Shown: positions 1,425 through 58,343, counted from the stretch's first letter. The stretch is DNA of 64,000 nucleotides from Candidatus Sysuimicrobium calidum (GCA_031459935.1 JAVKHN010000001.1:23388-87387); one strand, 5' to 3'. Notes: generated by a model from the letters alone, not told the origin. Program-made: numbers and translations.

Positions 1425-1513
1425 CTGAACACACGTTTGGCAGGAGCAGGTATCCCCCTGCTTGAACAATATGTCTGACCGTCTGACCAAATTGACCCAA
1501 GGGGGTGACCGTG
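1425..1513 (+). promoter_or_regulatory. Conserved ~85-nt leader element (copy A) upstream of Liv-type solute-binding protein gene
   Basis: GAACACACGTTTGGCAGGAG ... TGTCTGACCGTCTG ... GGTGACCGTG. Near-identical blocks recur at 6136-6220. Confidence 0.4.
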
Positions 1514-2725
1514 GTGCGGTTGCCGAAGCGGGGCGGGTGGCTGCTCTGGATCTTGCTGGTCCTCTTCGCCGTCGGGCCGGTTCAGATGGGCTCGAGCGCT
1601 CCGGCGAGGAGTCCCATCCTGGTGGGCGGTACCCTGGGGCTCACCGGGCCCTTCTCCGGTCCCTCTGCCGTGTACAAGGCCGTCTACGAGTACTGGGTCA
1701 GCCGGGTAAACCGGGAGGGCGGGCTTTTGGGCCGTCCGGTGCGGCTCATCCTCTACGACGACGAGGGCAAGCCCGCAGTGGCCCAGGCCCTCTACCAGCG
1801 GCTGCTGAAGGAGGACAACGTGGACCTAGTCCTAGCGCCCTACACCACCCTCGTGGGTGGAGCCGTGATCCCCATCGTGGAGTCCGCGGGCAAGGTCCTG
1901 TGGAACGGGGGGTTCGTGGGCATCGAGCTCTTCAAGAAGTCCCGGTGGTTGGTGGGCGCGTACGCCTACCAGGAGCCCGATTACCCGCGCGGGATCTTCG
2001 AGCTCATTGACAGCCTCCCGCCCCAGCAGAGGCCCCGGCGCATCGGCGTGGTCACGGAGCAGAACCCCTTCACCCTCGTGGTGAAGAACGGGTACCAGGG
2101 GTATGGCGGCGTGCTCGGGTTCGCCCGGCAGCGCAACATCCCCGTGGTGCTGAACGAAGAGTTCGCCCCCACGGTGACGGACGTGAGCGGGCTCATCCAG
2201 CGCGCGAAGGCGGCCAACGTGGACCTCTTCTTCGCTCTGGCCCTCCCGAATCCCGCGGCCCTGCTGGCCCGCACCGCGCACGAGCTGGGATTCAAACCCG
2301 CCATCTACTGCCAGTGTGGATCTCAGGTGACCATGCTTCCGTACTGGCGCAACCTCGGGCCGGCTGCGGAGGGCGTCATGGGCACCACCATCTCCTGGCA
2401 TACGGATCGCTACAAGGAAGTCAGTACCCTCCATGCGCTGCTCCAGCGGATGGGGTATCCGGAACTCCCCTCCTACGCCACCGTGGCCCTCACCATCCTC
2501 CAGGTGATGGAACAGGCGGTGAAAGCCACTGGTACCCTCGACCAAGCAAAGCTGCGTGCATACGTGGTAGGGCGAACGTTCGCCACCGCTAACGGTCTCC
2601 TTAAGTACGACAAGGACGGGATCCCCAGTTACAATCAGGTGGTTCTGCAGTTCCTCCGGGGTCGGAACGAGGTGGTGTGGCCTCCCAACCGGGCCACCGG
2701 GAAGCCTATTATCCCCATGCCGTGA
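1505..2725 (+). CDS. ABC transporter substrate-binding protein, branched-chain amino acid (LivK/LivJ-like, PBP type I) family
   Basis: 406 aa with N-terminal signal peptide and hydrophobic stretch. Followed by two ABC ATPases and two Liv-type permeases. Confidence 0.82.
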   Translation: MTVVRLPKRGGWLLWILLVLFAVGPVQMGSSAPARSPILVGGTLGLTGPFSGPSAVYKAVYEYWVSRVNREGGLLGRPVRLILYDDEGKPAVAQALYQRLLKEDNVDLVLAPYTTLVGGAVIPIVESAGKVLWNGGFVGIELFKKSRWLVGAYAYQEPDYPRGIFELIDSLPPQQRPRRIGVVTEQNPFTLVVKNGYQGYGGVLGFARQRNIPVVLNEEFAPTVTDVSGLIQRAKAANVDLFFALALPNPAALLARTAHELGFKPAIYCQCGSQVTMLPYWRNLGPAAEGVMGTTISWHTDRYKEVSTLHALLQRMGYPELPSYATVALTILQVMEQAVKATGTLDQAKLRAYVVGRTFATANGLLKYDKDGIPSYNQVVLQFLRGRNEVVWPPNRATGKPIIPMP

Positions 2726-3459
2726 GCCGTCCGTTGCTCAGCGCGCGGAACCTCGTGAGGCGCTTCGGCGGAGTCGTGGCCGTGGACCGGGTGTCCTTCG
2801 ACCTGGAGGCGGGGGTTGTACTGGGCATCATCGGCCCCAACGGCTCGGGCAAAACGACCCTGCTGAACCTCCTCAACGGGGTGTATCCGCCGGATGCGGG
2901 GGAGGTATGGCTTGCGGGCCGTCGGGTGGAGGGGGGGCCGCCGCAGCGACTGGCCGACCTGGGAGTCATGCGGACCTTCCAGACCACCCGGGTGTTTCGG
3001 AGCCTCACCGTGCTGCAGAACATGCTGGTTCCCCTCCTGCACCGGCCTACGCGGATGCACGAGGCCCGCAACAGAGCTATAGAGCTCCTCGCCTCCGTGG
3101 GGCTGGCGGAGTACGCCCACGTCCCGGCCAGCCAGCTCTCCGGAGGACAGCAGCGGCTATTGGAATTCGTGCGTGCCCTCATGACCGAACCGCGCGTGGT
3201 GCTCATGGACGAGCCCTTTGCGGGCGTGCATCCGGACGCCATCGAGGTCCTCACACGGCGGGTGGAGGCCCTTCGGAAGGAGGGCGCATCCTTCGTGGTG
3301 GTGAGCCATGAGATCCCGGTGCTGATGTCCCTGAGCCAGCGCGTTCTGTGCCTCAACCAGGGACGTGTGATCGCGGACGGCACTCCGGAGGAGGTGGCCC
3401 GCAACGAGGCCGTGGTGGAGGCGTATCTGGGAGATGGACGTGTACGGGAGGTCTCCTGA
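2722..3459 (+). CDS. ABC transporter ATP-binding protein (LivG-like)
   Basis: Walker A GPNGSGKTTLLN, signature LSGGQQRLLE, Walker B VLMDEP. Proposed GTG start overlaps upstream stop; the longer ORF start at 2677 is unlikely. Confidence 0.85.
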   Translation: MSRPLLSARNLVRRFGGVVAVDRVSFDLEAGVVLGIIGPNGSGKTTLLNLLNGVYPPDAGEVWLAGRRVEGGPPQRLADLGVMRTFQTTRVFRSLTVLQNMLVPLLHRPTRMHEARNRAIELLASVGLAEYAHVPASQLSGGQQRLLEFVRALMTEPRVVLMDEPFAGVHPDAIEVLTRRVEALRKEGASFVVVSHEIPVLMSLSQRVLCLNQGRVIADGTPEEVARNEAVVEAYLGDGRVREVS

Positions 3460-4165
3460 GATCCGCGTGGTGGACGTGGAGGCCGGATACTACCCGGAGC
3501 AGACCGTCCTGCAGGGTGTGCACCTCGTGGCCCGCCCCGGACAGCTCACGGCTCTTCTGGGCCCCAACGGCTCCGGGAAGTCTACGGTGCTGCGGGTGGT
3601 GTACGGCCTCCTCCGACCCCGGCGAGGTGCCGTGTGGGTGGACGGGAAGGATGTAAGCCAGGTGCCTGCACACCAGCGGGTGGGTCTTGGCATGGGATAT
3701 CTTCCCCAGGGTCGGAGTGTGTTCCCCAGCCTCACCGTGGAGGAGAACCTGGAGGTGGGGACCTGGACCCTGCTGCGGGTCGCCCGGCGAGCCGCCCTGG
3801 ACCGGGTATACGAGCGGTATCCCGCCTTGAGGGCCTGGCGGGACCGGCCGGCCGGAATTCTCAGCGGGGGACAGCAGCGCATGGTGGAGATCGCCCGCAT
3901 GATGGTCACCGATCCCCGGGTGATCCTCCTGGACGAACCCACCGCGGGCCTGGCGCCGGTGGCCGCGCAGGAGGTCTACGAGGAGGTGGCCCGACTGCGT
4001 CGCGAGGGACGCACGGTGCTGCTGGTGGATCAGAACGTCCGGGCTGCGGTATCCCTTGCGGACTACGTCTATACCCTGGCCTTTGGCCGCAATCAGCTGG
4101 AGGGAACGAGGGAGGAGTTCCAGCAGCGGATGCACGCGGTGGTCCGGGAGTGGCTGCGGGTGTGA
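3434..4165 (+). CDS. ABC transporter ATP-binding protein (LivF-like)
   Basis: Walker A GPNGSGKSTVLR, signature LSGGQQRMVE, Walker B ILLDEP. Confidence 0.85.
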   Translation: MDVYGRSPEIRVVDVEAGYYPEQTVLQGVHLVARPGQLTALLGPNGSGKSTVLRVVYGLLRPRRGAVWVDGKDVSQVPAHQRVGLGMGYLPQGRSVFPSLTVEENLEVGTWTLLRVARRAALDRVYERYPALRAWRDRPAGILSGGQQRMVEIARMMVTDPRVILLDEPTAGLAPVAAQEVYEEVARLRREGRTVLLVDQNVRAAVSLADYVYTLAFGRNQLEGTREEFQQRMHAVVREWLRV

Positions 4166-4174
4166 GGTGAAGGG

Positions 4175-5053
4175 ATGCCCCTCACGCTGCTGACGGAGGC
4201 TGTGGTCAACGGCGTGCTCCTGGGCCTGGTGTATGCCCTGATCTCCGTGGGCCTCAGCCTCACCCTGGGCGTGCTGGGGGTGGTGAACATGGCCCATAGT
4301 GCGTTCGTCATGCTGGGTTCCTTTTTCGCCCTGGAGCTGCTCTTGCGGTTGGGAGCCCCGCCGATGCTCTCGGTGCTGGCCGCGGCCCCTCTGTTCTTCG
4401 GAGTTGGGATGGCGGTGGACCGGCTGCTGCTCCGGCGTACCGCGTCCACCTCGGAGGCCATGGGCCTGCTCGTGCTGTTCGGCCTCATGCTGGTGCTAGA
4501 GAACGGGGCCATCCTGGTGTGGACCACGGATACCCGGGTCCTGCCGTGGCAGATGGGCCAGATGGTGCTAGCAATGGGTGGGCTCCGGGTCTCCTTCGGG
4601 CGCCTGCTGGCTGCGGGCCTTGCTTTGACGATGATTCTTGTCCTGGACTTTTTGCTGCGCCGCACCCTACTGGGAAAGGTGGTGCGCGCAGTCGGGCAGA
4701 ATCCGGACGCGGCCGCGGTGCTCGGCGTGGACGTGACACGGATCTCCATGGTGGTGGTAGGGGCCGGCGTAGCCACGGCCGCCATGGGGGGTGTGGCTGT
4801 GGCCATGATGTTCCCGTTCGCGCCGCAGGAACACCTGCGGTGGCTCGCCTGGGCCTTCCTCCTGGTGATCGTAGGAGGTCTGGGGAGAGTGCGGAACACG
4901 CTGGTGGCGGGACTGCTGGTCGGCCAGCTGGAGGCGCTCAGCGGAATTCTCCTCCCCTTCCAGTACGTGTACGCGGTGGTGTACGCGTTCCTGGCCATCA
5001 CCCTGATCCTCCGCGGGCGCGGGCTGCAAGCTGCACAGGAGCGGACTCTCTAG
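4175..5053 (+). CDS. Branched-chain amino acid ABC transporter permease (LivH-like)
   Basis: 292-aa polytopic membrane protein, directly downstream of the ATPases. Confidence 0.8.
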   Translation: MPLTLLTEAVVNGVLLGLVYALISVGLSLTLGVLGVVNMAHSAFVMLGSFFALELLLRLGAPPMLSVLAAAPLFFGVGMAVDRLLLRRTASTSEAMGLLVLFGLMLVLENGAILVWTTDTRVLPWQMGQMVLAMGGLRVSFGRLLAAGLALTMILVLDFLLRRTLLGKVVRAVGQNPDAAAVLGVDVTRISMVVVGAGVATAAMGGVAVAMMFPFAPQEHLRWLAWAFLLVIVGGLGRVRNTLVAGLLVGQLEALSGILLPFQYVYAVVYAFLAITLILRGRGLQAAQERTL

Positions 5054-5057
5054 CGCG

Positions 5058-6074
5058 ATGCGATCCTCTACCTGGACGGAATCCTGGACGACAGAACCCA
5101 CCCGGGCCAATCGCTGGCCCGTTGTAGGGGGCATGGCGGTTCTGGGCCTGACCGTGGGGATCGGGCTGTGGGCGGAGGGCCTGGGCCTTCTCAGTACGCT
5201 GACCAACGTGTTCCTGTTCCTCCTCCTCACCCAGGCCTGGAACCTTCTGGGGGGCTATGCAGGCTACCTGAACCTCGCCATGGCCGTGTTCTTCGGGGTC
5301 GGCGCCTACACCACGGGCATCCTGGCTCACAGGGGGAATTGGCCGCCCCTGCTGACGGCCCCGCTGGGGGGCCTGGTGGCGGTGCTCTGGGCGGCGGCCG
5401 TGGGCGTACCGAGCCTGCGGGTGCGGGGTCCCTACTTCGCCGTCCTCACCATGATCCTGGGATTCCTGGCCCAGGTGCTCGCCTACAACGTTCCCTGGAC
5501 CCGCGGCGCCATGGGGATCTACGTGTCCCCGCTGCCCTGGGATCGGCGGGTGGTGGAGCAATTCTTCTATTTCACGTACCTGGGGCTTGCCCTGCTGGTC
5601 ACGGGGATGGCGGCGCGGATCCAGTCCTCCCGCTTCGGGGCCGCCCTGGTGGCCGTGCGGGAGGACGAGGTGGCGGCGGGAGTCCTCGGAGTGCGAACCA
5701 CGTGGGTGAAGGTGGCGGCCCTGCTGCTGGGCGCTTTCTGGGCGGGCGTGGCCGGGGGTCTGTACACCCAGCGGATCGGGTACATCGAGCCCACGGGGGT
5801 CTTCAGCCTGGACATCTCCGTGGACGTGGTCCTCATGGCCATGGTGGGCGGTGCGGGAACCTGGCAGGGGCCGCTCCTGGGTGTCCCTCTCGTCATGCTG
5901 GTGGCGGAACTGCTGCGGGTGGGTGTGGTGCATCTGGGCCTGTTTGGAGCACGGATTCCGGTGGAGTTCAACCGGGTGGTGTTCGGTGCGGCCCTGATCT
6001 TTATCGCCCTGTACGCACCTCAGGGCCTGATGGGGCTTATACGTCCCTTCCGCGGGCGTCGGTTGGGGGTGTAG
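5058..6074 (+). CDS. Branched-chain amino acid ABC transporter permease (LivM-like)
   Basis: 338-aa polytopic membrane protein; operon context. Confidence 0.8.
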   Translation: MRSSTWTESWTTEPTRANRWPVVGGMAVLGLTVGIGLWAEGLGLLSTLTNVFLFLLLTQAWNLLGGYAGYLNLAMAVFFGVGAYTTGILAHRGNWPPLLTAPLGGLVAVLWAAAVGVPSLRVRGPYFAVLTMILGFLAQVLAYNVPWTRGAMGIYVSPLPWDRRVVEQFFYFTYLGLALLVTGMAARIQSSRFGAALVAVREDEVAAGVLGVRTTWVKVAALLLGAFWAGVAGGLYTQRIGYIEPTGVFSLDISVDVVLMAMVGGAGTWQGPLLGVPLVMLVAELLRVGVVHLGLFGARIPVEFNRVVFGAALIFIALYAPQGLMGLIRPFRGRRLGV

Positions 6075-6135
6075 TGCGGACGGGATACCCCGGTCCCGGA
6101 TCCGGCGAGCCCGCCTATCCCCGCCCTCCGCTTGC

Positions 6136-6220
6136 GAACACAGGTTTGGCAGGAGGAGAGTCCCTTCATGGCGTAGGGTTTTGTCTGATGATCTGCTGAA
6201 CAGGCGGGAAGGTGAGCGTG
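6136..6220 (+). promoter_or_regulatory. Conserved ~85-nt leader element (copy B) upstream of TAXI TRAP solute-binding protein gene
   Basis: GAACACAGGTTTGGCAGGAG ... TGTCTGATGATCTG ... GGTGAGCGTG. Matches the 1427-1513 copy at 19 of 20 positions in the first block; both end in a GTG start followed by GTG CGG codons. Confidence 0.4.
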
Positions 6221-7207
6221 GTGCGGCGGAGATGGCAGGTGGGGATGATCGTCGTGCTGCTCATGGCCCTGGGCCCCGCTGGGGCTTTCGCGGGTCCCGT
6301 GGAACGCCTGACCATCCTGGGAGGGCCGGCCGCGGGGGTATTTAATGTGTTCGCCACGGGCCTCGCCACGTTCCTGTCACGGAGCGTACCCGGCATGGAG
6401 GTAACGGTGGCGGCCACCGGGGGGTCTGTGGAGAATGTGCGGCGGGTGAACGGAAAGGAGGCCGAGCTCGCGGTAGCCTTCGCGAGCGACGTCCATGAAG
6501 GGTACTACGGACTCGAGGCTTTCCAGGGCAACCCGCAGCGTAACATCCGGGCCATCGGGCTTCTTTTCATCGGCGTGGGGCACTTCGTCGCCTACAAGGA
6601 CAGCGGGATCCGGACCGTCGGGGACCTTGCGGGAAAGCGTGTGGCGGTGGGGTCTCCGGGCTCCGGCACCTTCGCGAACGCCCAGCGCGTTCTCACGGAG
6701 CTGGGCCTGTGGGATCGCATCCAGCGGGTGCCGCTCCTGGGATCTGCCGCGGCCGCAGCGCTGCGGGACGGGCGGGTGGATGCTTTCTTCTTCACGGCTC
6801 CCTATCCGGATCGGGCCACCATCGAGGCCGCCATCGCCAGGGAAGTACACCTCCTGGATCTGTACGGTCCCCTTTCCCGCACGGAGTTCTTCCGGAAGTA
6901 CCCGTACTTCATCCGGTACGTGATCCCGAGCCGGGGCTACCACGGGCTCACGGACTCTGTGAGCACCATCGGCATCCCGGGCCTGTGGTTTACGCACCGG
7001 GACGTCTCCCCTGCCCTCGTGCGCCGGCTGGTGGCCGCAGCTTACAGCCGTGAGGGCCACGCACATATGCTGCAGGTGCACGCTGCCTCCGCAGACATGA
7101 CCACGCGCCGGGCCCTGCTGGGGGTAAGCATCCCCCTGCACCCTGGTGCGGAGGCCCACTACCGCTCCGTAGGGCTGGAGATCCCGGACGCCATCCGGGC
7201 GCGGTAG
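6212..7207 (+). CDS. TRAP transporter solute-binding protein, TAXI family
   Basis: 331 aa with signal peptide and TAXI-like periplasmic domain. Immediately followed by a fused TRAP permease. Confidence 0.72.
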   Translation: MSVVRRRWQVGMIVVLLMALGPAGAFAGPVERLTILGGPAAGVFNVFATGLATFLSRSVPGMEVTVAATGGSVENVRRVNGKEAELAVAFASDVHEGYYGLEAFQGNPQRNIRAIGLLFIGVGHFVAYKDSGIRTVGDLAGKRVAVGSPGSGTFANAQRVLTELGLWDRIQRVPLLGSAAAAALRDGRVDAFFFTAPYPDRATIEAAIAREVHLLDLYGPLSRTEFFRKYPYFIRYVIPSRGYHGLTDSVSTIGIPGLWFTHRDVSPALVRRLVAAAYSREGHAHMLQVHAASADMTTRRALLGVSIPLHPGAEAHYRSVGLEIPDAIRAR

Positions 7208-7220
7208 TCAGCAGGGAAGC

Positions 7221-9116
7221 ATGCGGAGGCTGGTGGGTCCGTGGGATTGCCTGGTAAGGACAGGCCTCGCGGCCACCGTGGGGTTTTACCTGTGGGCGGC
7301 AGCGGTGGGGGGGACGAGCCTCCAGTACCACCGCGGCATCGCGGTGCTGTTTAGCCTCGCCTCGGCTTTCCTCCTCTATCCGGCCACCCGACGTTCTCCC
7401 CAGGACCGACCCTCGTGGGCAGATGTTCTGCTCGCGGTAGCCTCCTGTGCGGTGGCCGGGTACTGGATCGCACAGTACGAGGCTTTGGCCTACCGGGCGG
7501 GTGCGTTCACTCCCATGGACGTGGCCATGGGGATTCTGGCGCTTGCCCTGAGCGTGGAGGTTACCCGCCGGGTCCTGGGTCCTTCCATGACCGTGGTGGC
7601 TCTGTTGCTGGTGGCCTACGCCCTGTGGGGGAACTACCTGCCCTCCGTGGTGGGCCACCGAGGATTCACCCTCCGCCGGGTGGTGGAGTACTTCTACCTC
7701 ACCCCGGAGGGGCTGTTCGGAGTCATGCCGGACATTCTCGCCAGCTACATCCTGCCCTTTGTAGCCTTCGGGGCGTTCTTGCTGCGGGCAGGAGTGGCGA
7801 AGTTCTTCATGGATCTCTCCATCGCCCTGGTGGGTCGCATGCGGGGCGGTCCCGCTCAGGTAGCGGTGGTGAGCAGTGCCCTGTTCGGGTCTATCAATGG
7901 AAGCCCCGTGGCCAACACCGCCACTACAGGTGCCTTTACCATCCCTCTCATGAAACGGTGCGGCTTTCCCCCACACATCGCGGCCGCGGTGGAAGCGGCC
8001 GCCTCCACGGGCGGGATGATTCTGCCGCCCGTGATGGGCGCAGGCGCCTTCATCATGGCGGAGCTCACCCAGATCCCTTACGCCCGCATCGCGGCGCTTT
8101 CCGCACTCCCCGGCCTGCTGTACTTCCTGGGTGTGGGCGTGATGGTGTACTGCGAGGCCCGCAAGCTGGGCTTGGAAGGGCTTCCGCCGGACCAGATCCC
8201 CCGGCTGCGGGATGTCCTCCGAGCGGGGTGGTACCTCCTGATGCCGTTGGCGGTACTGGTGGTGGTACTGGTCCGCACCACCTCCGCCTCCATGGCGGTG
8301 ATGGCTAGCATCGCCAGCACCGTGCTTGTGAGCTGGCTGCGACCGGAGACCCGGATGGGCCCCCGGGAGATCTGGGGGGCCCTGGTGGATGCAGGCCGCA
8401 GCAGCACCTACGTGGCCGCGGCCACGGGTGCCATTGGAATCGTGGTGGCGATCGTAACCCTCACGGGGATAGGGGTACGCTTTAGCCAGCTGGTCCTGGA
8501 CGTCTCGGGCGGCAACTTGCCGATCGCGCTTTTGCTCGTGGCCGCGGCTAGCTTCGTGCTGGGGATGGGCATGCCCATCACCGCCGCCTACCTGATCCTG
8601 GCCGTGGTGGCGGCCCCCGCTCTCGTGAAGCTCGGTGTGCCGCTTCTGGCGGCCCACATGATCATCTTCTGGCTGAGTCTGGACTCCAACATCACTCCAC
8701 CCGTGGCCTTGGGTGCGGTCACCGCGGCCGCCATCGCTCAGGCGGATCCGTGGCGTACGGGCTGGAACAGCTTCCGGTTCGCCAAGATGATCTACGTCAT
8801 GCCCGTGCTGTTCGCGTACACCCATATCCTCATGACGGGCACCTGGGCGGAGAACCTGTGGGCGGCCGTTTCCTCTGTGGTGGGAACCGTGGCCTTCTCC
8901 ATCATGAGCACAGGCTATTTCCTGGTGCGCACCACCGTGCCGGAGTGGGGGGTGCTGGCGGCAGCCACGGTGCTTTGCTTCATTCCCACCCTGGCCACCG
9001 ATCTGGTGGGAATCGGGCTCTTTGCCCTCGTGTACCTGTGGCAGCGGCGCAGGCGGGTGCACCAAGAGATGGCGGTGCGGGCGGGACTTCCGGCCCGCGC
9101 CGCGGCGGTGAAGTGA
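7221..9116 (+). CDS. TRAP transporter fused permease (DctQ-DctM-like 4TM/12TM fusion)
   Basis: 631-aa highly hydrophobic polytopic protein adjacent to the TAXI solute-binding protein. Confidence 0.8.
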   Translation: MRRLVGPWDCLVRTGLAATVGFYLWAAAVGGTSLQYHRGIAVLFSLASAFLLYPATRRSPQDRPSWADVLLAVASCAVAGYWIAQYEALAYRAGAFTPMDVAMGILALALSVEVTRRVLGPSMTVVALLLVAYALWGNYLPSVVGHRGFTLRRVVEYFYLTPEGLFGVMPDILASYILPFVAFGAFLLRAGVAKFFMDLSIALVGRMRGGPAQVAVVSSALFGSINGSPVANTATTGAFTIPLMKRCGFPPHIAAAVEAAASTGGMILPPVMGAGAFIMAELTQIPYARIAALSALPGLLYFLGVGVMVYCEARKLGLEGLPPDQIPRLRDVLRAGWYLLMPLAVLVVVLVRTTSASMAVMASIASTVLVSWLRPETRMGPREIWGALVDAGRSSTYVAAATGAIGIVVAIVTLTGIGVRFSQLVLDVSGGNLPIALLLVAAASFVLGMGMPITAAYLILAVVAAPALVKLGVPLLAAHMIIFWLSLDSNITPPVALGAVTAAAIAQADPWRTGWNSFRFAKMIYVMPVLFAYTHILMTGTWAENLWAAVSSVVGTVAFSIMSTGYFLVRTTVPEWGVLAAATVLCFIPTLATDLVGIGLFALVYLWQRRRRVHQEMAVRAGLPARAAAVK

Positions 9117-9118
9117 CC

Positions 9119-9832
9119 ATGTACGAGCCCCTGGAGCGCCCCAAAGTCTACCAGCTGCTGGCGGACCGACTCCTGCACCAGATCCGGACCCGCCAGCTCA
9201 AGCCGGGGGATGCGCTGCCCACAGAACAGGAGCTCATGCGACGCTTCGGGGTGGGCCGTTCCTCCGTGCGGGAAGCCCTGCGCTTGCTGGAATCCAAGGG
9301 GATGATCCGGTCCGCGGGACGCGGTTCCTTCGTGGTGGCCGCATACGAGCACGCCCTCGTGGACTCCCTGCGGTTTCTGCTCACCGTGGAGGCCTTCGAT
9401 CTCCTGGAGCTGTACGAGCTGCGCCGGATCCTGGAGGCGGAGCTGGCGGCCCTCGCGGCCAGGCGCCGGAACGCCGAGCACCTCCAGACCATGGCGGAAG
9501 CCATCGAGCAGATGCGATCAGGCCTGGCGGCAGAGGAGCCCGCACGGTACATCGAGGCGGATCTCCACTTCCACCTCACCGTGGCCCAGGCCACCTGCAA
9601 CCGGATGGCGGTGTACGTGATGCGGGCCATCCGGGACCCCCTGCACCGGGCTCTGCAGTCCGTCTACCACATCCCGGGAAGCCCAGAGGCGTCCATCGCC
9701 CAGCACCGGGAGATCCTGGCGGCCATCCACGCGCAGGACCCGGCGGCGGCCCGGGAGCGGATGCGGGAGCACCTGGGCCGGGTTTATACGGACATCCAGC
9801 GGGTGCTGAGGGGCGGGGAACATGAGGATTGA
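9119..9832 (+). CDS. GntR family transcriptional regulator (FadR/FCD subfamily)
   Basis: N-terminal winged HTH (LPTEQELMRRFGVGRSSVREALRLLESKGMI) plus C-terminal FCD-like helical domain. ATG at 9119 lies two nt after the permease stop; the ORF-track start at 8750 is a read-through artefact. Confidence 0.8.
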   Translation: MYEPLERPKVYQLLADRLLHQIRTRQLKPGDALPTEQELMRRFGVGRSSVREALRLLESKGMIRSAGRGSFVVAAYEHALVDSLRFLLTVEAFDLLELYELRRILEAELAALAARRRNAEHLQTMAEAIEQMRSGLAAEEPARYIEADLHFHLTVAQATCNRMAVYVMRAIRDPLHRALQSVYHIPGSPEASIAQHREILAAIHAQDPAAARERMREHLGRVYTDIQRVLRGGEHED

Positions 9833-9865: not shown

Positions 9866-9912
9866 CTTGACCGGTGGCGATTGGGCGGGACTATGTATTG
9901 ATGTCATCACAC
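9866..9912 (+). promoter_or_regulatory. Putative sigma70-like promoter (TTGACC-N18-CTATGT) with overlapping perfect palindrome TGATGTCATCA (9899-9909), candidate operator
   Basis: Seen directly in the 108-bp gap between the GntR regulator gene and the amidohydrolase gene. Confidence 0.3.
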
Positions 9913-9940: not shown

Positions 9941-11284
9941 ATGGCCAGGCGGATGCTCATCAAAAACGGGTGCGTGCTCACCCTGGACCGGCAGATCGGC
10001 AACTTCTCGCAGGCGGACGTCCTCATCGAGGATACCCGCATCGCCGCGGTGGGTCCCAACCTGACCGCGGCGGACGCGGAGGTCCTCGATGCGTCCGGGA
10101 TGATCGTCATGCCGGGGTTCATCGACACCCACCGGCACTGCTGGGAGGGCATCCTGCGGAACATCGGGACGGACGTGCCGTTGGAGGGGGAGCGGAGCTA
10201 CCTTGCCTTCGTCCTCAACCAGCTGGCGCCCGCCTACCGGCCCGAGGACGTGTACATCGCGAACCTGGTGAGCGCCCTGGGGTGCATCGACGCGGGCATC
10301 ACCACGGTTCTGGACTGGTCCCACATCCAGACCACTCCGGAGCACACGGACGCGGCCATCCGCGCCCTGCAGGAGGCGGGCATCCGCGCGGTGTTCGCGT
10401 ACGGCCGGCCGTGGTTCGAGCCCCCTAAGCCTGAACACCCGGCCTGGATCCGACGGGCTGCCCAGCAGTACTTCTCCTCGAAGGACCAGCTCCTTACCTT
10501 CGGCCTGGCGATCTTCGGGCCGGAGTTCGACTCCCTGGAAGGATGTCGGGCGGACTGGCAGCTCGCCCGGGAGCTGGACGCGCGCATCACGACCCACGTG
10601 GGCGTGGGCACCTTCGGGAGACACGGCAAGGTGGGGGAGGTGGGCCGGACGGGGCTGTACGGCCCGGACACCACCTTTATCCACTGCTGCACGCTGAGCG
10701 ACGAGGAGATCCGCCTGATCGTGGACTCGGGGGCCACCGTCTCCCTGGCCTGCCCGGTGGAGATGATGATGGGGCACGGGATGCCTCCCATCCAGCGCTT
10801 CCTGGATCTGGGCCTGCGTCCCAGTCTGAGCGTGGACGTGGAGACCAACGTTCCCAACGACATGTTCACGCAGATGCGGAGTGCGATCTCGCTGCAGCAC
10901 ATGCTGGTGTTCGAGCAACGACTGGCAGGCCGGGAGGACGCACCGCCGCCCGTGACCACCCGGGACGTGCTGGAGTGGGCCACCATCGAGGGGGCCCGTG
11001 CCAACGGGCTGGATCACAAGGTGGGGACCCTCACGCCGGGCAAGGAGGCGGACATCATCCTGTTGCGCACGGATCGCCCGAACATCTTCCCCGTCAACGA
11101 TCCCATCGGTGCAGTGGTGTGGGGGATGGATACGAGCAATGTGGACACGGTGATGGTAGCGGGCAGAATCCTCAAGCGCGGTGGCGAGCTGGTGGGAGTG
11201 GACCTGAACCGGGTGCGGCAGCTCGCCTACCAGTCCCGGGACTACGTGGTGTCCAAGTCCGGGTTCCGGCTGCCCGAGATCTAA
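9941..11284 (+). CDS. Amidohydrolase family protein (TRZ/ATZ-type chlorohydrolase/aminohydrolase/deaminase superfamily)
   Basis: 447 aa with metal-binding HxH motif (GFIDTHRHCWEG) and a later HxxG...D pattern typical of PF01979. RBS GGAGGGG upstream. Confidence 0.8.
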   Translation: MARRMLIKNGCVLTLDRQIGNFSQADVLIEDTRIAAVGPNLTAADAEVLDASGMIVMPGFIDTHRHCWEGILRNIGTDVPLEGERSYLAFVLNQLAPAYRPEDVYIANLVSALGCIDAGITTVLDWSHIQTTPEHTDAAIRALQEAGIRAVFAYGRPWFEPPKPEHPAWIRRAAQQYFSSKDQLLTFGLAIFGPEFDSLEGCRADWQLARELDARITTHVGVGTFGRHGKVGEVGRTGLYGPDTTFIHCCTLSDEEIRLIVDSGATVSLACPVEMMMGHGMPPIQRFLDLGLRPSLSVDVETNVPNDMFTQMRSAISLQHMLVFEQRLAGREDAPPPVTTRDVLEWATIEGARANGLDHKVGTLTPGKEADIILLRTDRPNIFPVNDPIGAVVWGMDTSNVDTVMVAGRILKRGGELVGVDLNRVRQLAYQSRDYVVSKSGFRLPEI

Positions 11285-48716: not shown

Positions 48717-49474
48717 GCCACCAGGGCCCCCAAGACGGTGGCGAGAAAGTTCACCCCGTCGTTGTCGAGGCCACCTAGCCCCGAGATCCGCTGCCCCCAC
48801 GCCCCACAGCCGCAGCGGCGTCCTTCCCCGATCTCGCCGCACCGCGGGCAGCGGTAACGAGCCTGCAGGGTGGCACCGAGGAGACTATCCAGGAGCATCC
48901 CGATGACACCCGCGCGGGCTGTGAGGCGGAGAGGTGCTGTCCCCGTTGCCCGGGCCACAAGCCCGCACACCGCCGCTCCGGCGGCTCCTGCCACGGTTCC
49001 GAGCAGGGTCACGCCCCCGGAGCTCCCGGGCGGGACCCGGGCGCCCGTGGTGAGGTGGCGGGGGGTGCCGCCGTACCGCACCCCGAGCTCCGTGGCCCAG
49101 GTGTCCGCGCACGCAGCGGCCACGGCTCCCGCGAAAGCCCGGGAGGCCATGGGCCATCGGCGGGACAGCCACGCGGCAAGCGCGGCCACGGCTCCGTTGG
49201 CGAGCACCTGCCGGCCCGTGCGGCCCGCCCGGTCCCGCCGGGAGCCCGGGAGGCGGGTCAGGAGGGTGGCGGAGGCGAAGAAGGTCAGGAGGACCGCCGA
49301 CCACCGCAGGCCGCCTGCCCGGAAGACTGCGGTCCCGATGCCCGCGGCCACCAGGGGTCCTGTTCCGCGCAGGGCCCTGGCCCCGCGGGCCAGAGCGGCC
49401 ACGGATCCGGAGAGGAGGAGTCCTGCAGGCCAGGATCCGCCTGGATCCCCGGGAGTCTTGACAGGCCGGGTCAC
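48638..49474 (-). CDS. Integral membrane protein, DUF92/TMEM19-like; start uncertain
   Basis: Multiple hydrophobic helices. The N-terminal 137 aa of the ORF-track ORF (to 49885) run antisense through the rrn promoter and 16S 5' end and are discarded. Candidate GTG start at 49474. Confidence 0.4.
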   Translation of the reverse strand: MTRPVKTPGDPGGSWPAGLLLSGSVAALARGARALRGTGPLVAAGIGTAVFRAGGLRWSAVLLTFFASATLLTRLPGSRRDRAGRTGRQVLANGAVAALAAWLSRRWPMASRAFAGAVAAACADTWATELGVRYGGTPRHLTTGARVPPGSSGGVTLLGTVAGAAGAAVCGLVARATGTAPLRLTARAGVIGMLLDSLLGATLQARYRCPRCGEIGEGRRCGCGAWGQRISGLGGLDNDGVNFLATVLGALVAYRSPDPSPCSLKTGRMPMWKMSSRE

Positions 49475-49485
49475 GTAGGTATGAT
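49458..49485 (+). promoter_or_regulatory. rRNA operon promoter P1 (TTGACA-N16-TATGAT)
   Basis: Near-consensus sigma70 hexamers about 280 nt upstream of the 16S 5' end. Confidence 0.45.
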
Positions 49486-49589
49486 AGGAGATGGCTGCCG
49501 GGGGTGCCGTGAGGGAGCCCGGGCAGAGCACCTTGACACTTCCTCCCTGAGTGATCCTCCCGCGATGCCTTTTGCGGGGGTGAAGTCGG

Positions 49590-49618
49590 TTGACAGGATG
49601 GGGGGAAGGTGTTAGGGT
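49590..49618 (+). promoter_or_regulatory. rRNA operon promoter P2 (TTGACA-N17-TAGGGT)
   Basis: Second consensus -35 with TAnnnT -10, about 150 nt upstream of the 16S gene. Confidence 0.4.
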
Positions 49619-51323: not shown

Positions 51324-51725
51324 TTAAGGAGCATCATCCCGCCCGGTCCGGCATGATCGCCGGCCCCCGCGTGAGCGGGGTTCCAGCTCGGCCGCGGGCG
51401 GGTGCAGGCTGCGGCGGTTCCTGCCACTATCGGTTTCCAGGGTTCCGGAGGAGGTGGCCGACTACCACCTCCTCCGGTCTGTTGGTGAACCTTGACAACT
51501 GCATAGCGAGATCCGAGCGCTCCGAGAGACTGCTCCCGAGGTAGGGGGCCGTCAAGCTAGAACGGGCGCACGGTGGATGCCTTGGCGTCAGGAGCCGACG
51601 AAGGACGCTGCAGGCGGCGAAAGGTCCGGGGAGCTGCCAAGCAAGCTGTGATCCGGACGTCTCCGAATGGGGAAACCCGGCGGGGGTCATGCCCCGTCAC
51701 CCACCGCGGAATCCATGGGCGGTGG

Positions 51726-51766
<41 letters not shown>

Positions 51767-52090
51767 AAGGAAATCAACCGAGATTCCCCGAGTAGTGGCG
51801 AGCGAAAGGGGAAGAGCCCAAACCCCGCGGGTGCCAAGCCCGCAGGCGTTGCCCGCGGGGAGTTGTGGGACGCGGCCGGACCGGGCTGCGGACCGGTCGG
51901 GAAGTCAGAAATCCCCGCTCTAGTCGAACCGTCCTGGAACGGCGGGCCAGAGAGGGTGACAGCCCCGTAGGCGAAAGGGTGGGGACTTCCTGGGTCGCGG
52001 TCCCGAGTACCACGGGACACGTGGAATCCTGTGGGAAGCTGGGGGGACCACCCTCCAAGGCTAAATACTCCTGACGACCGATAGCGCACG

Positions 52091-52121
<31 letters not shown>

Positions 52122-53597
52122 GGGAGGGGAGTGAAATAGAACCTGAAACCGTGTGCCCACAAGCAGTCGGAGGGCTATGCCGATCCCGCAAGGGATCGGA
52201 AGGGCCTGACGGCGTGCCTATTGAAGAATGAGCCTGTGAGTTGCCGCGTGTGGCGAGCTTAAGTCCGGAAGGACGGAGGCGTAGGGAAACCGAGTCTGAA
52301 CAGGGCGCCGCTCCCGGAAGGGAGGGCGAGAGTGACCTCGCCAGTCGCACGCGGCAGACCCGAAACCGGGTGAGCTACCCATGGCCAGGGTGAAGCGCGG
52401 CTAACCCCGCGCGGAGGCCCGCACCCGTCGGTGTTGCAAAACCGTGGGATGAGCTGTGGGTAGGGGTGATATGCCAATCGAACCCGGAGATAGCTGGTTC
52501 TCCCCGAAATGCATTGAGGTGCAGCCTCGGCGCGAGCGTCACGGAGGTAGAGCACTGGATGGGCTAGGGCGGAAGAATCCGTACCGAACCCAACCAAACT
52601 CCGAATGCCGTGACGTGGTCGCCGGGAGTGAGACGGTGGGGGATAAGCTCCATCGTCGAGAGGGGAACAGCCCAGATCGCCGGCTAAGGTCCCTAAGTCC
52701 CAGCTAAGTGGGAAAGGAAGTGGCACCGCCCAGACAGCCGGGAGGTTGGCTTAGAAGCAGCCATCCTTTAAAGAGTGCGTAACAGCTCACCGGTCGAGTG
52801 GTGCTGCGCCGAAAACGTAACGGGGCTCAAGCTGGGCACCGAAGCCGCGGGTCCTGCCGGAGTGTCGCCTCCGGCAGGGCGGTAGGGGAGCGTTCCGCTG
52901 TAGGGTGAAGCCGGACCGTGAGGACCGGTGGACGAGGCGGAAGTGAGAATGCAGGCATGAGTAGCGAAAAGGCGGGTGAGAATCCCGCCCCCCGTAAGCC
53001 TAAGGGTTCTTACGGAAGGTTCGTCCGCGTAAGGTTAGGCGGGAGCTAAGGTGAGGCCGAAAGGCGTAGCCGATGCACAGCCGGTCGACATTCCGGCCCC
53101 ACTCAGGGATCGCTACGAGCCACGGAGGGACGCAGGAGGGTAGCCCTACCGGCGGCCGGAAGTGCCGGGCCAACCGGGTAGGCTGGGGTCCTAGGCAAAT
53201 CCGGGACCCCGTCAAGGCCGAGACGGGAGTGCGAGCGGGATTGAGACGCCCGCGAAGTGGGTGAGCCCACACTGCCAAGAAAAGCTTCGTGGCCAGATCC
53301 CTGGGTGCCCGTACCGCAAACCGACACAGGTAGGCAGGCACACAACGTGCCCAGGGGCGCGAGGGAACCCTCCTCAAGGAACTCGGCAAATTGGCCCCGT
53401 AACTTCGGGAGAAGGGGTGCCCCGGTAGGGTGAGGTGCCTCGCGCACCGAGCCCGAAGGGGTCGCAGGGAATCGGCCCAGGCGACTGTTTAACAAAAACA
53501 CAGGTCTCTGCTAAGCCGCAAGGCGATGTATAGGGGCCGACGCCTGCCCAGTGCCGGAAGGTAAAGGGGAGGGGTGAGGCCGCAAGGCGTAGCTCCA

Positions 53598-54432
<835 letters not shown>

Positions 54433-54693
54433 AGGCGTAACGACCTGGGCGCTGTCTCGAGGAGGGGCTCGGCGAAGGTGTACCACCCGTGAAGATACGG
54501 GTTACCCGCAGCTGGACGGAAAGACCCCGTGGAGCTTTACTGCAGCCTGATATTGGATGTGGTTTTGCCGTGTATAGGATAGGTGGGAGGCTGAGAAGCG
54601 GGGGCGCCAGCCTCCGTGGAGCCGCCCTTGGAATACCACCCTCGGTAAGGCTACGTCCTAACCGGGGCCCTACATCGGGTTCCGGGACAGTGT

Positions 54694-54731
<38 letters not shown>

Positions 54732-54886
54732 GGTAACGGAGGCGCCCAAAGGTCCCCTCAGCACGGTTGGAAACCGTGCGTTGAGTGCAAGGGCATAAGG
54801 GGGCTTGACTGCGAGACCCACAAGTCGAGCAGGGGCGAAAGCCGGGCCTAGTGATCCTCTGGCGGCAAGTGGAAGCGCCAGGGCTT

Positions 54887-54919
<33 letters not shown>

Positions 54920-54936
54920 GATCTCCCCCAAGAGTC

Positions 54937-54975
<39 letters not shown>

Positions 54976-54998
54976 CCCCATCCTGGGGGGGCAGTACC

Positions 54999-55029
<31 letters not shown>

Positions 55030-55037
55030 GGGTACGT

Positions 55038-55072
<35 letters not shown>

Positions 55073-55199
55073 CCTATCCACTGCGGGCGCAGGTGGCTTG
55101 AGGGGGGCTGCTCCTAGTACGAGAGGACCGGAGTGGACGCACCTCTGGTGTACCGGTTGTCGCGCCAGCGGCACGCGCCGGGTAGCCATGTGCGGTTGT

Positions 55200-55230
<31 letters not shown>

Positions 55231-55414
55231 ACGCCCCAAGATGAGGCCACCCACCGGGTCAACCGGGTAAGGCCCCAGGAAGACCACCTGGTAGATAGGC
55301 CGGAGGTGGAAGCGCGGCAACGCGTGAAGCCGACCGGTACTAATCGGCCGAGGGCTTGGCGGCCTCCTACCGCTGGAGCAGAGCCGGAGTGCCGGATCTC
55401 GCATGCAGTTGTCG

Positions 55415-55899: not shown

Positions 55900-55977
55900 G
55901 GCCCCTCGACCTCCCGGTTGTGTACCCCAAGCGCTTGACAATCCTAGGGTACTAAGTTTATTCTAGCGGTTGAATTC

Positions 55978-57056: not shown

Positions 57057-58343
57057 TCAAGTGGAATTCCTTGACGGATGCGGGCTGCGGACCCCGAACC
57101 GCGCGGCCACGTACTGCTCCAGGAGAGCGAGGAACTCCTCGGCGATGCGGTCCCCACGGAGAGTGGCCAGCAGTTGCCCGTCCGCATACACGGGGGCCCG
57201 GGGCTCCTCGAAGGTACCGGGGAGGCTGATGCCGATGTGCGCGTGCCGGCTCTCCCCGGGGCCGTTCACCACGCATCCCATCACCGCCACTCGGAGCTCC
57301 TCCACCCCGGGGTACCGCTCCCTCCACTCGGGCATGCGATCCCGGATGTAGCTCTCGACCTGCTCCGCCAGCTCCCGGAAGAAGGAGCTGGCGGTGCGAC
57401 CGCAGCCCGGGCAGGCGGTCACCTGAGGCGCGAACGACCGGAGGCCCACGGACTGGAGGATCTGCTGGGCCACCCGCACCTCCTCCGTGCGGTCCCCCCC
57501 GGGAGGTGGGGTGAGGGACACCCGGATGGTGTCCCCGATCCCCTCGTACAGAAGCACGGCCAGGGCGGCTGCGGAGGCCACGACGCCTTTCGTCCCCATT
57601 CCCGCCTCCGTGAGGCCCACGTGCAGAGGGTGGTCGCATGCGGACGCTAGGCGCCGGTAGATCTCGATGAGGTCCGGTACGCTGCTGGTCTTCGCACTGA
57701 GCACGATGCGGTCGTGCGGCAGGCCGCACGCTTCCGCGAAGGCCGCGCTCCGCAGCGCGCTCTGCACCATGGCCTCCCGTACCACCTCCCGGGCATCTTT
57801 GGGGTGCGGGGAGCGGGCGTTCTGGTCCATGAGCTCCGTGAGGAGACGCTGGTCCAGCGACCCCCAGTTCACCCCGATGCGCACGGGTTTCCCGTGGTCC
57901 AGGGCCACCCGGAGGATGGTGCGGAAGTTCTCGTCGTGTCCCCCGGGACCCACATTGCCCGGGTTGACCCGGTACTTGTCCAGGGCCTGGGCACACTCCG
58001 GGAAGCGGGTGAGGAGAAGATGCCCGTTGTAGTGGAAGTCGCCCACGATGGGCACGGTAACCCCCTCGTCCCGCAGGCGCCGCACGATCTCGGGCACCGC
58101 CCGGGCCGCGGCCTCGTGGTTCACCGTGATCCGTACCAGTTCGCTGCCCGCCTCCACAAGCGCCCGCACCTGCGAGACCGTGGCTTCCACGTCCGCGGTG
58201 TCCGTGTCCGTCATGGACTGCACCGCGATAGGGGCCTCGCCTCCGATCCAGAGGGTGCCGATGCGCACCGGTACAGAGCGTCTCCGGAGGCGGGGAGGGG
58301 TCTTGAGGTGCGACAGCGAAGACATCCCGTACCAGGATACCAT
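57057..58343 (-). CDS. ispG: 4-hydroxy-3-methylbut-2-en-1-yl diphosphate synthase (flavodoxin)
   Basis: [15 protein letters not shown]-terminal motif, TIM-barrel region, C-terminal CPGCGR [4Fe-4S] cysteine motif. The ORF-track extension to 58631 is discarded; start taken as Met at 58343. Confidence 0.85.

Follow-up and report, generated by a model that had tools for sequence, protein, structure and literature searches.

In the present study, we analysed a 64-kb stretch (64,000 nucleotides, 68% GC; hereafter the window) of a metagenome-assembled genome (MAG) from the phylum Armatimonadota, Candidatus Sysuimicrobium calidum, in which a shared leader of about 85 nt stands before two transporter operons. 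From upstream to downstream, the locus consists of xdhC, a mobA-like gene, the first leader, a Liv-type ABC operon, the second leader and a TAXI-TRAP operon that ends with the gene for a GntR-type regulator (Table 1). The solute-binding proteins encoded behind the two leaders belong to different families according to Pfam and NCBIfam, namely Peripla_BP_6 (LivK-type) and NMT1_3/TAXI, as a first-pass annotation of this DNA had proposed. The TAXI protein reached 213 bits against TIGR02122 (cutoff 84), and the Liv binding protein is 90% identical to its counterpart in L007. Orthologous loci of related Armatimonadota were obtained through protein homologues and are given here by their L numbers; L007, L008 and L009 are strains of a sister species, and the leaders of L001 (GCA_031432595.1) are identical to those of the window.

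The two leaders share three blocks. Block 1, the 20-mer GAACACA[C/G]GTTTGGCAGGAG, has two copies in the window, both on the plus strand. With the query GAACACASGTTTGGCAGGAG there were still exactly two matches when 3 mismatches were allowed, and in shuffled controls (n=100) the mean was 0.01 matches and 0/100 reached two. A third site was absent from the window within 4 mismatches, the next best having 5-6 mismatches and lying inside genes. Pairwise alignment placed TGTCTGA-N3-TCTG (TGTCTGAYNRTCTG) and GGTGAsCGTGGTGCGG at equivalent distances 3' of block 1. The former is block 2, which reads TGTCTGACCGTCTGAC in the first copy and TGTCTGATGATCTGCT in the second; the pattern TGTCTGAYNRTCWGMY had no further match in the window, and two matches were seen in 1/100 shuffles. 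The sequences of block 3, GGTGACCGTGGTGCGG and GGTGAGCGTGGTGCGG, were likewise found as described, and from block 1 to the GTG-CGG codons the two copies measure 87 and 85 nt. Thus every sequence feature of the shared leader that the first-pass annotation had listed is present where it was placed. The reading of block 3 has to be changed, as it had been taken to encode the similar N-termini MTVVR and MSVVR. The 3' end of the window's own 16S rRNA is ...GGATCACCTCCTTTCT, with the complement GGAGGTGATC, which GGGGGTGAcc and GAAGGTGAgc each match at 8/10 positions. The start codons are probably the third GTGs, at 1514 and 6221: the product of the TAXI gene at NCBI (P0001) has 328 aa, consistent with a start at 6221, and the window GTG at 1514 is aligned with the ATG of Liv in the sister species. 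Since translation would begin at the third GTG, the MTVV/MSVV likeness lies outside the protein and reflects the DNA of a GGAGGTGA-like Shine-Dalgarno (SD) sequence with its spacer.

Block 2 is conserved between loci. It consists of two adjoining GTCWGAY units, each with a GT-N3-AC core, and is located 1-3 nt 3' of a -10-like hexamer and about 20 nt 5' of the SD. Among the fetched loci, GTCTGAY-N-RTCWGAC precedes the first gene of every operon with an orthologous GntR gene, and such a gene (60-85% identity) was found in or beside every operon that carries the site. In L007/8/9, whose TAXI protein is 88% identical to that of the window, the site reads GTCTGACGATCTGAC in the TAXI leader and GTCTGATGGTCTGAC in the Liv leader. 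In L011 (TAXI 82% identical) it is GTCTGACAGTCAGAC, a perfect 15-bp palindrome, in L014-16 (75%) TGTCTGACAATCAGACA, which is a perfect palindrome in L014, in L017 (82%) GTGTGACAATCAGAC and in L018 (79%) GTCTGACAATCAGAA. L020/21 (65%) have three tandem units, GTCTGTTG-GTCTGATT-GTCTGACC. In L020 (9901-9927) these are direct GTCTG units with an 8-bp period, and because a TAGGGT -10-like hexamer follows them, this operator would overlap the -35/spacer region and not the start site. In L035 the GntR gene heads the operon and TGTCAGACGATCAGCTGGTCCGACA lies immediately 5' of its SD. Overall, GTCTGAC/GTCAGAC units are present in all 11 distinct leaders, with two operator copies in the window and two each in L007, L008 and L009; between the window species and its sister species the operators are identical at 13-14/16 positions. 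Elsewhere in the 64-kb window the motif was not found, and in the related loci it is confined to leader positions. The FadR-subfamily operator consensus is TNGTNNNACNA and the operator of Corynebacterium glutamicum LldR is TGGTCTGACCA (PMC2602784, PMC11472048), at the centre of which GTCTGAC is found. Block 2 is most probably the predicted operator of the FadR-type GntR regulator encoded behind the TAXI-TRAP genes. The proposal that a duplicated cis-regulatory module stands ahead of two unrelated uptake systems is hence supported, as block 2 tracks the orthologous GntR/FCD gene through seven related genomes. In the more remote relatives L011, L014/L015 and L018, the TAXI-TRAP-GntR operon lies directly 3' of smpB and a tmRNA gene (about 9830-9900 in L011/L014), whose tRNA-like 3' end ...GGTTCGATTCCCGCCGCCTCCACCA is 22-55 nt 5' of a conserved (C)AGGAGG.

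The regulator has GntR and FCD domains, and its nearest solved structures are PDB 6az6, NanR and LldR (2di3); PdhR structures were also matched. In 7 orthologues there is no change in the recognition helix (VGRSSVREALR-LES-G) or in the metal ligands of the FCD domain (D148, H152, H196 and H218), and this invariant helix agrees with the conserved core of the operator. No NCBIfam equivalog cutoff was reached by the regulator, the best being the NanR subfamily with 149 bits against a cutoff of 260; it therefore appears to represent an uncharacterised orthologous group from Armatimonadota.

We consider, with a probability of roughly 70%, that each leader is a compact region of promoter, operator and ribosome-binding site, that the two copies are paralogues and that one locally encoded GntR/FadR-type regulator controls both operons. 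In the proposed layout, block 1 (a GAAC-N4-GTTY dyad followed by the -35-like TTGGCAGGAG) would be followed by a non-conserved 19-nt spacer and a -10-like hexamer (TAGGGT or AACAAT). The block 2 operator would come 1-3 nt past the hexamer, and a strong GGAGGTGA-like SD with the GTG start about 15-20 nt later. We infer from this arrangement that, without inducer, one or more GntR dimers would occupy the operator at or just 3' of the transcription start and so stop initiation of the Liv-type ABC operon and the TAXI-TRAP-gntR operon. Because gntR belongs to the latter, the regulator would be autoregulated. A small-molecule inducer, probably the transported substrate or a catabolite, would bind the metal-containing FCD domain and release the repressor.

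Several points weigh against this interpretation. Block 1 is confined to the window species and the L007-type sister species, where it is found in both leaders (e.g. GAACCCATGTTTGGCAGGAG and GAACCCGTGTTCGGCAGGAA), and it has no assigned binding partner. A canonical sigma-70 promoter could not be placed in the leaders, as the distance from TTGGCA to the -10-like hexamer is 22 nt and not 16-18 nt; for this reason both the promoter and its transcription start are putative. Two copies of the operator, that of the TAXI leader in the window (ATCTGCT) and that of the Liv leader in L008, have a degenerate right half, and the operator units are just 8 bp apart from centre to centre, which leaves the number of dimers and their binding mode ambiguous. 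In addition, the regulon scan covered contig-sized pieces of genomes.

Table 1. Positions of the leader blocks and of the genes that they precede, counted from the first nucleotide of the window
Feature	Position	Strand	Remarks
Block 1, copy 1	1427..1446	+	GAACACACGTTTGGCAGGAG; dyad GAAC-N4-GTTT and -35-like TTGGCAGGAG; candidate -35 region or activator site
-10-like hexamer AACAAT, Liv leader	1465..1470	+	Read from sequence
Block 2, copy 1	1472..1487	+	Putative operator TGTCTGAC-C-GTCTGAC, two GT-N3-AC units
Block 3, copy 1	1501..1516	+	Shine-Dalgarno GGGGGTGA, 5-nt spacer, probable GTG start 1514
Liv-type ABC operon	1514..6074	+	Binding protein 1514-2725, two ATPases, two permeases
Block 1, copy 2	6136..6155	+	GAACACAGGTTTGGCAGGAG
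-10-like hexamer TAGGGT, TAXI leader	6174..6179	+	Same hexamer as the -10 of rRNA P2 (49613-49618)
Block 2, copy 2	6182..6197	+	Putative operator TGTCTGAT-G-ATCTGCT, right unit degenerate
Block 3, copy 2	6206..6223	+	Shine-Dalgarno GGGAAGGTGA, 5-nt spacer, probable GTG start 6221
TAXI-TRAP transporter	6221..9116	+	Binding protein 6221-7207, fused membrane subunit 7221-9116
GntR/FCD (FadR-subfamily) regulator	9119..9832	+	Closes the TAXI-TRAP operon; proposed to bind block 2

Block 1 was compared with promoters that are readily recognised in the window. Four canonical promoters of sigma-70 type are present (49458-49618, 55935-55975 and 57060-57031 on the minus strand), 3/4 of which have TTGACAGG in common, with the -10 hexamers TATGAT, TAGGGT and TAGGCT. 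The rRNA promoters read TTGACA-N16-TATGAT (P1) and TTGACA-N17-TAGGGT (P2), and the promoter at 57060(-) reads TTGACAGGAG-N14-TAGGCT. The element TTGGCAGGAG matches the -35 region TTGACAGGAG of the latter at 9/10 positions, and the -10-like hexamer lies exactly 19 nt after GGCAGGA in 4/4 leaders of the two species. Nevertheless, the best position weight matrix scores for a promoter in the leaders were <=7 versus 14-18 for the rRNA promoters, and consensus scans of both leaders for promoters and terminators found nothing. The remark that block 1 is unlike any standard sigma-factor consensus holds, since the spacing rules of both sigma-54 and sigma-70 fail. As a sigma-54 site (TGGCAC-N5-TTGCW, GG and GC 10 bp apart), block 1 offers TGGCAGG, but the -12 GC/TTGC is absent in 4/4 leaders. 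When the four aligned leaders were inspected, ECF (GGAAC-N16-17-CGT), sigma-B-type (GTTT-N12-16-GGGTAT) and MerR-type (19-20 bp spacer) promoters failed on spacing or missing elements. A LacI/PurR-type palindrome CAAACGTTTG was rejected for want of conservation in its central bases. The reading of block 1 as a further, degenerate GntR site was also discarded, because GTTTGGC agrees with GTCTGAC at 5/7 positions, which is too weak, and is unconserved in the L007 Liv leader.

Conservation between the two species indicates that block 1 is nevertheless under selection. It is identical at 18/20 positions between their TAXI leaders and at 15/20 between their Liv leaders. For comparison, the two species agree at 61-67% of third codon positions and at 40-65% of the middle segment, where the TAXI orthologues have 17/26 and the Liv orthologues 10/25 positions in common. 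The differences among the strains L007, L008 and L009 all lie outside block 1, and nearly all outside the operator. An exact search for block 1 in the GTDB species genomes gave 2 chance matches in unrelated taxa. In JGI metagenomes, block 1 together with the operator had genuine matches solely in the two leaders of the sister species (L028, L031 and L033), the remaining ones being chance matches or a conserved coding stretch of a low-GC organism. When a sequence profile was made from the leaders, it recovered only the four leaders and, from GCAGGAGG onward, parts of the TAXI leaders in L011, L014 and L020. As these distant leaders match only from GCAGGAGG, the GAAC-N4-GTTY dyad would be a clade-specific addition to an older layout of GCAGGAGG-N~26-operator. 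We conclude only that block 1 is probably a selected promoter-upstream element whose role is that of either a -35 region or an activator site.

One suggestion, which we regard as doubtful, is that block 1 (GAAC-N4-GTTY-GGCAGGAG) is the site of a further activator or belongs to an unusual clade-specific promoter architecture, so that a second regulatory input would be set atop GntR repression. In its more definite form, block 2 would be bound by the local GntR protein and block 1 by another, independent factor that is a class-II-type activator or else a LexA-like repressor acting on GAAC-N4-GTTC, as an input specific to this clade. The dyad is indeed found in 4/4 leaders, with a 7/8 or 8/8 match to GAAC-N4-GTTC, and is perfect (GAACCCGTGTTC) in the Liv leader of L007. 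Furthermore, the centre of block 1 lies about 40 bp 5' of the putative transcription start site, the zone of class II activators, its spacing to the -10-like hexamer is fixed and there is no usable -35 hexamer at 17 bp. The dyad also equals the core of the Gram-positive LexA (Cheo) box, which lies upstream of SOS genes (lexA, recA, uvr). However, transporter operons would be atypical SOS genes, the dyad is present at just two sites in the window, and the genome and metagenome scans gave no further copies. A candidate activator gene was not found in the cluster, and the portion of block 1 that is common to the distant TAXI leaders is GCAGGAGG and not the dyad. A second factor at block 1 is accordingly an unlikely addition to the GntR-controlled promoter-operator that we prefer.

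The origin of the second leader can be followed in the gene order. In L035 and L040 (the latter from the same MAG as L018), the Liv genes begin 32-49 nt after the preceding gene (E2 by synteny with L011/L014), have no leader motif and are followed 3' by an ADH gene. Most relatives have the Liv genes inside a long operon of this kind and without a separate leader. A single operon of this length that began with the TAXI leader was therefore probably the ancestral state. The genes run in the order mobA, TAXI-TRAP and Liv-ADH-GntR in L007, and mobA, Liv and TAXI-TRAP-GntR in the window. Just past the stop codon of the Liv permease, and 5' of the window's TAXI leader, lies a 16-nt remnant of the 3' end of mobA, GGACGGGATACCCCGG (6078-6093, plus strand; compare 1353-1369). 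Its local alignment score is 27 versus a shuffle mean of 15.6 (standard deviation 2.3, maximum 24), and it seems to be a scar left when rearrangement brought the Liv operon to its place between mobA and TAXI. In addition, the window's Liv leader has a block 1 of TAXI type, with 18/20 positions identical to the TAXI leader of L007 and 15/20 to its Liv leader. The leaderless relatives, the swapped gene order, the mobA remnant and the TAXI-type block 1 together suggest that the Liv leader is a paralogous copy of the TAXI promoter-operator that resulted from the rearrangement. In the ancestor of the window species and its sister species, the Liv genes would have moved beside the TAXI genes and acquired a duplicate of their leader, with recombination inside block 1 as a possible route; since then, selection would have retained the functional blocks alone.

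Given such a history, the likeness of the leaders might be a non-functional scar of local duplication or rearrangement, with blocks that have merely not yet diverged. The Liv leader did arise through duplication, as seen from the leaderless Liv genes of L035 and L040, the mobA remnant stands 5' of copy 2, and the TAXI-type block 1 of the Liv leader suggests recombination or gene conversion. This explanation is nonetheless very improbable. The sister species has kept the same blocks twice despite the synonymous-site divergence given above, in spite of intervening segments down to 40-65% identity; the strain polymorphisms spare block 1 and almost wholly the operator, which is also kept at far more distant orthologous loci.

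The kind of module had been left open between a promoter/operator, a leader RNA or riboswitch and a leader-peptide-like element. Of these, the promoter/operator is favoured and the others found no support. A cis-acting RNA (riboswitch or translational/attenuation element) would be made from an upstream promoter; in it GUU-GGCAGG would pair with UUGUCU-GAY, and UCUGACC would sequester the SD GGUGA. RNAalifold proposed exactly these two helices, UCUGACC and GGUGAGA are complementary at 6/7 positions and the invariance of blocks 1 and 2 resembles that of riboswitch cores. However, a search of Rfam with the whole window at the gathering threshold and with both leaders at E<=10 returned nothing relevant, apart from one chance match to a long non-coding RNA (E=7.5). 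The minimum free energy z-scores of six leaders ranged from -0.67 to +1.24 (with +0.77 and -0.26 among them) and are like those of shuffles, and the folds differ between the leaders. The RNAalifold consensus is weak (-5.4 kcal/mol) and its covariation term of +0.53 is unfavourable. The helices between the invariant blocks are G-U rich, and neither the block 1/block 2 helix nor the SD helix contains a compensatory change; the two-sided changes amount to 2 pairs in one 2-bp mini-helix. Moreover, in L011, L014 and L018 the element is a perfect palindrome of DNA type, with no block 1 partner and no complementarity to the SD, and the motif tracks the gene for a DNA-binding regulator. An RNA element is hence hardly credible here. 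The short GC hairpins that had been noted in the central segments differ among orthologues (ATCC...GGAT in L007 and ACTC...GGAT in L008), and these segments are most probably promoter spacer DNA. A conserved upstream open reading frame (ORF) preceded by an SD, as expected of a leader peptide, is lacking in the leaders. The two-codon frame ATG-GCG-TAG is present in one copy only, and the TTG/ATG-TCT-GAY frame through the operator has no SD and no conserved length.

Several neighbouring features were also recorded. On the 3' side of the GntR gene are genes for an amidohydrolase, an SDR protein, a bicupin and a second Liv system, then a 3-hydroxyacid-dehydrogenase-like gene, E1 alpha/beta, an M24 hydrolase and E2, and beyond E2 a Mo-hydroxylase large subunit, an FAA hydrolase and additional binding proteins. 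By regular expression and profile search, no leader copy was found before the second TAXI gene (30226), the second Liv system (about 13048), the amidohydrolase gene (9941) or the extra TAXI-TRAP genes of L007. The region upstream of the amidohydrolase gene (9941-11284), which the leader profile did not match, is distinct: at 9867-9909 it has TTGACC-N19-TATGTA and then the palindrome TGATGTCATCA, and the sister species has ATGTCTAATGTCAAC at the equivalent position (L007 19405-19520). This palindrome may be a separate type of operator, or else one that is highly degenerate. In GCA_031432595.1, the LivK-type gene (L001 5204-6514) is called as two fragments of 215 and 188 aa, whereas that of the window (1514-2725) is intact with 403 aa; the L001 contig also has a run of N 5' of a coxD-like gene. 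In L014 and L015 (1-575, minus strand), a CoxM-like FAD-binding subunit (FAD_binding_5 and CO_deh_flav_C) has an unusual N-terminal fusion to an HTH_17 domain. Finally, the 23S rRNA gene (51550-55363) has 3814 nt against 2925 nt in the Rfam model and is thus about 890 nt longer. Inside it, the ORF 53768-54289 encodes a LAGLIDADG endonuclease of 173 aa (Pfam E=1.4e-18), beside which there is a sub-threshold match to a group I intron (54063-54330, 29 bits, E=4.7e-5). This bacterial 23S gene probably houses a group I intron that carries a homing endonuclease.

Overall, the shared leader most likely belongs to a conventional type of element and not to a new class of regulatory element, with block 1 as its sole unexplained part. 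The analysis suggests a concrete regulon assignment in an uncultivated phylum, Armatimonadota, with a FadR-type GntR regulator, the operator GTCTGAY-N-RTCWGAC and two target uptake systems. These are set in a large catabolic cluster with genes for a 2-oxoacid dehydrogenase, an M24 hydrolase, an amidohydrolase and a Mo-hydroxylase. It also offers a putative example of how a rearranged, split-off operon keeps its regulation by carrying along a copy of the promoter-operator. In practice, the assignment may be useful in annotation, and the FCD domain may serve as a handle for identifying the transported substrate.

The proposed system is close to those of the FadR-subfamily GntR repressors, such as C. 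glutamicum LldR, E. coli PdhR/LldR and NanR, which likewise combine a winged-helix GntR domain with an FCD domain bearing Asp/His metal ligands. As in these systems, the regulator is encoded together with transporter or catabolic genes, and the putative operator would lie between the -10 region and the ribosome-binding site. With C. glutamicum LldR (PDB 2DI3) it shares the GT-N3-AC core and all seven central operator bases, and the adjacent or tandem units recall the two-site operator of LldR and the repeat operators of NanR. The putative window operator differs from the LldR/FadR sites in having no flanking TGG/CCA, and its units are 8 bp apart and form direct, not inverted, repeats. Another resemblance is to transporter-associated riboswitches such as the NMT1 motif (xanthine riboswitch), found upstream of NMT1-domain genes: the present leader, too, is a conserved non-coding block, and it stands ahead of a gene for an NMT1_3/TAXI binding protein, with genes for a Mo-hydroxylase and an amidohydrolase in the same cluster. 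Unlike that motif, the present leader has no covariance-model match to any Rfam family and no stable or conserved fold, and its core is a DNA palindrome. A parallel in arrangement is DipR, for which six operators are described in the dip cluster (PMC11472048). In both cases, a GntR/FadR regulator encoded in the cluster is accompanied by a short palindromic site that is repeated before several transcription units, including transporter genes and the regulator's own gene. In the window, unlike the DipR system, the paralogy extends beyond the operator to the whole leader of about 85 nt, and the second copy goes back to a recent rearrangement of gene order.

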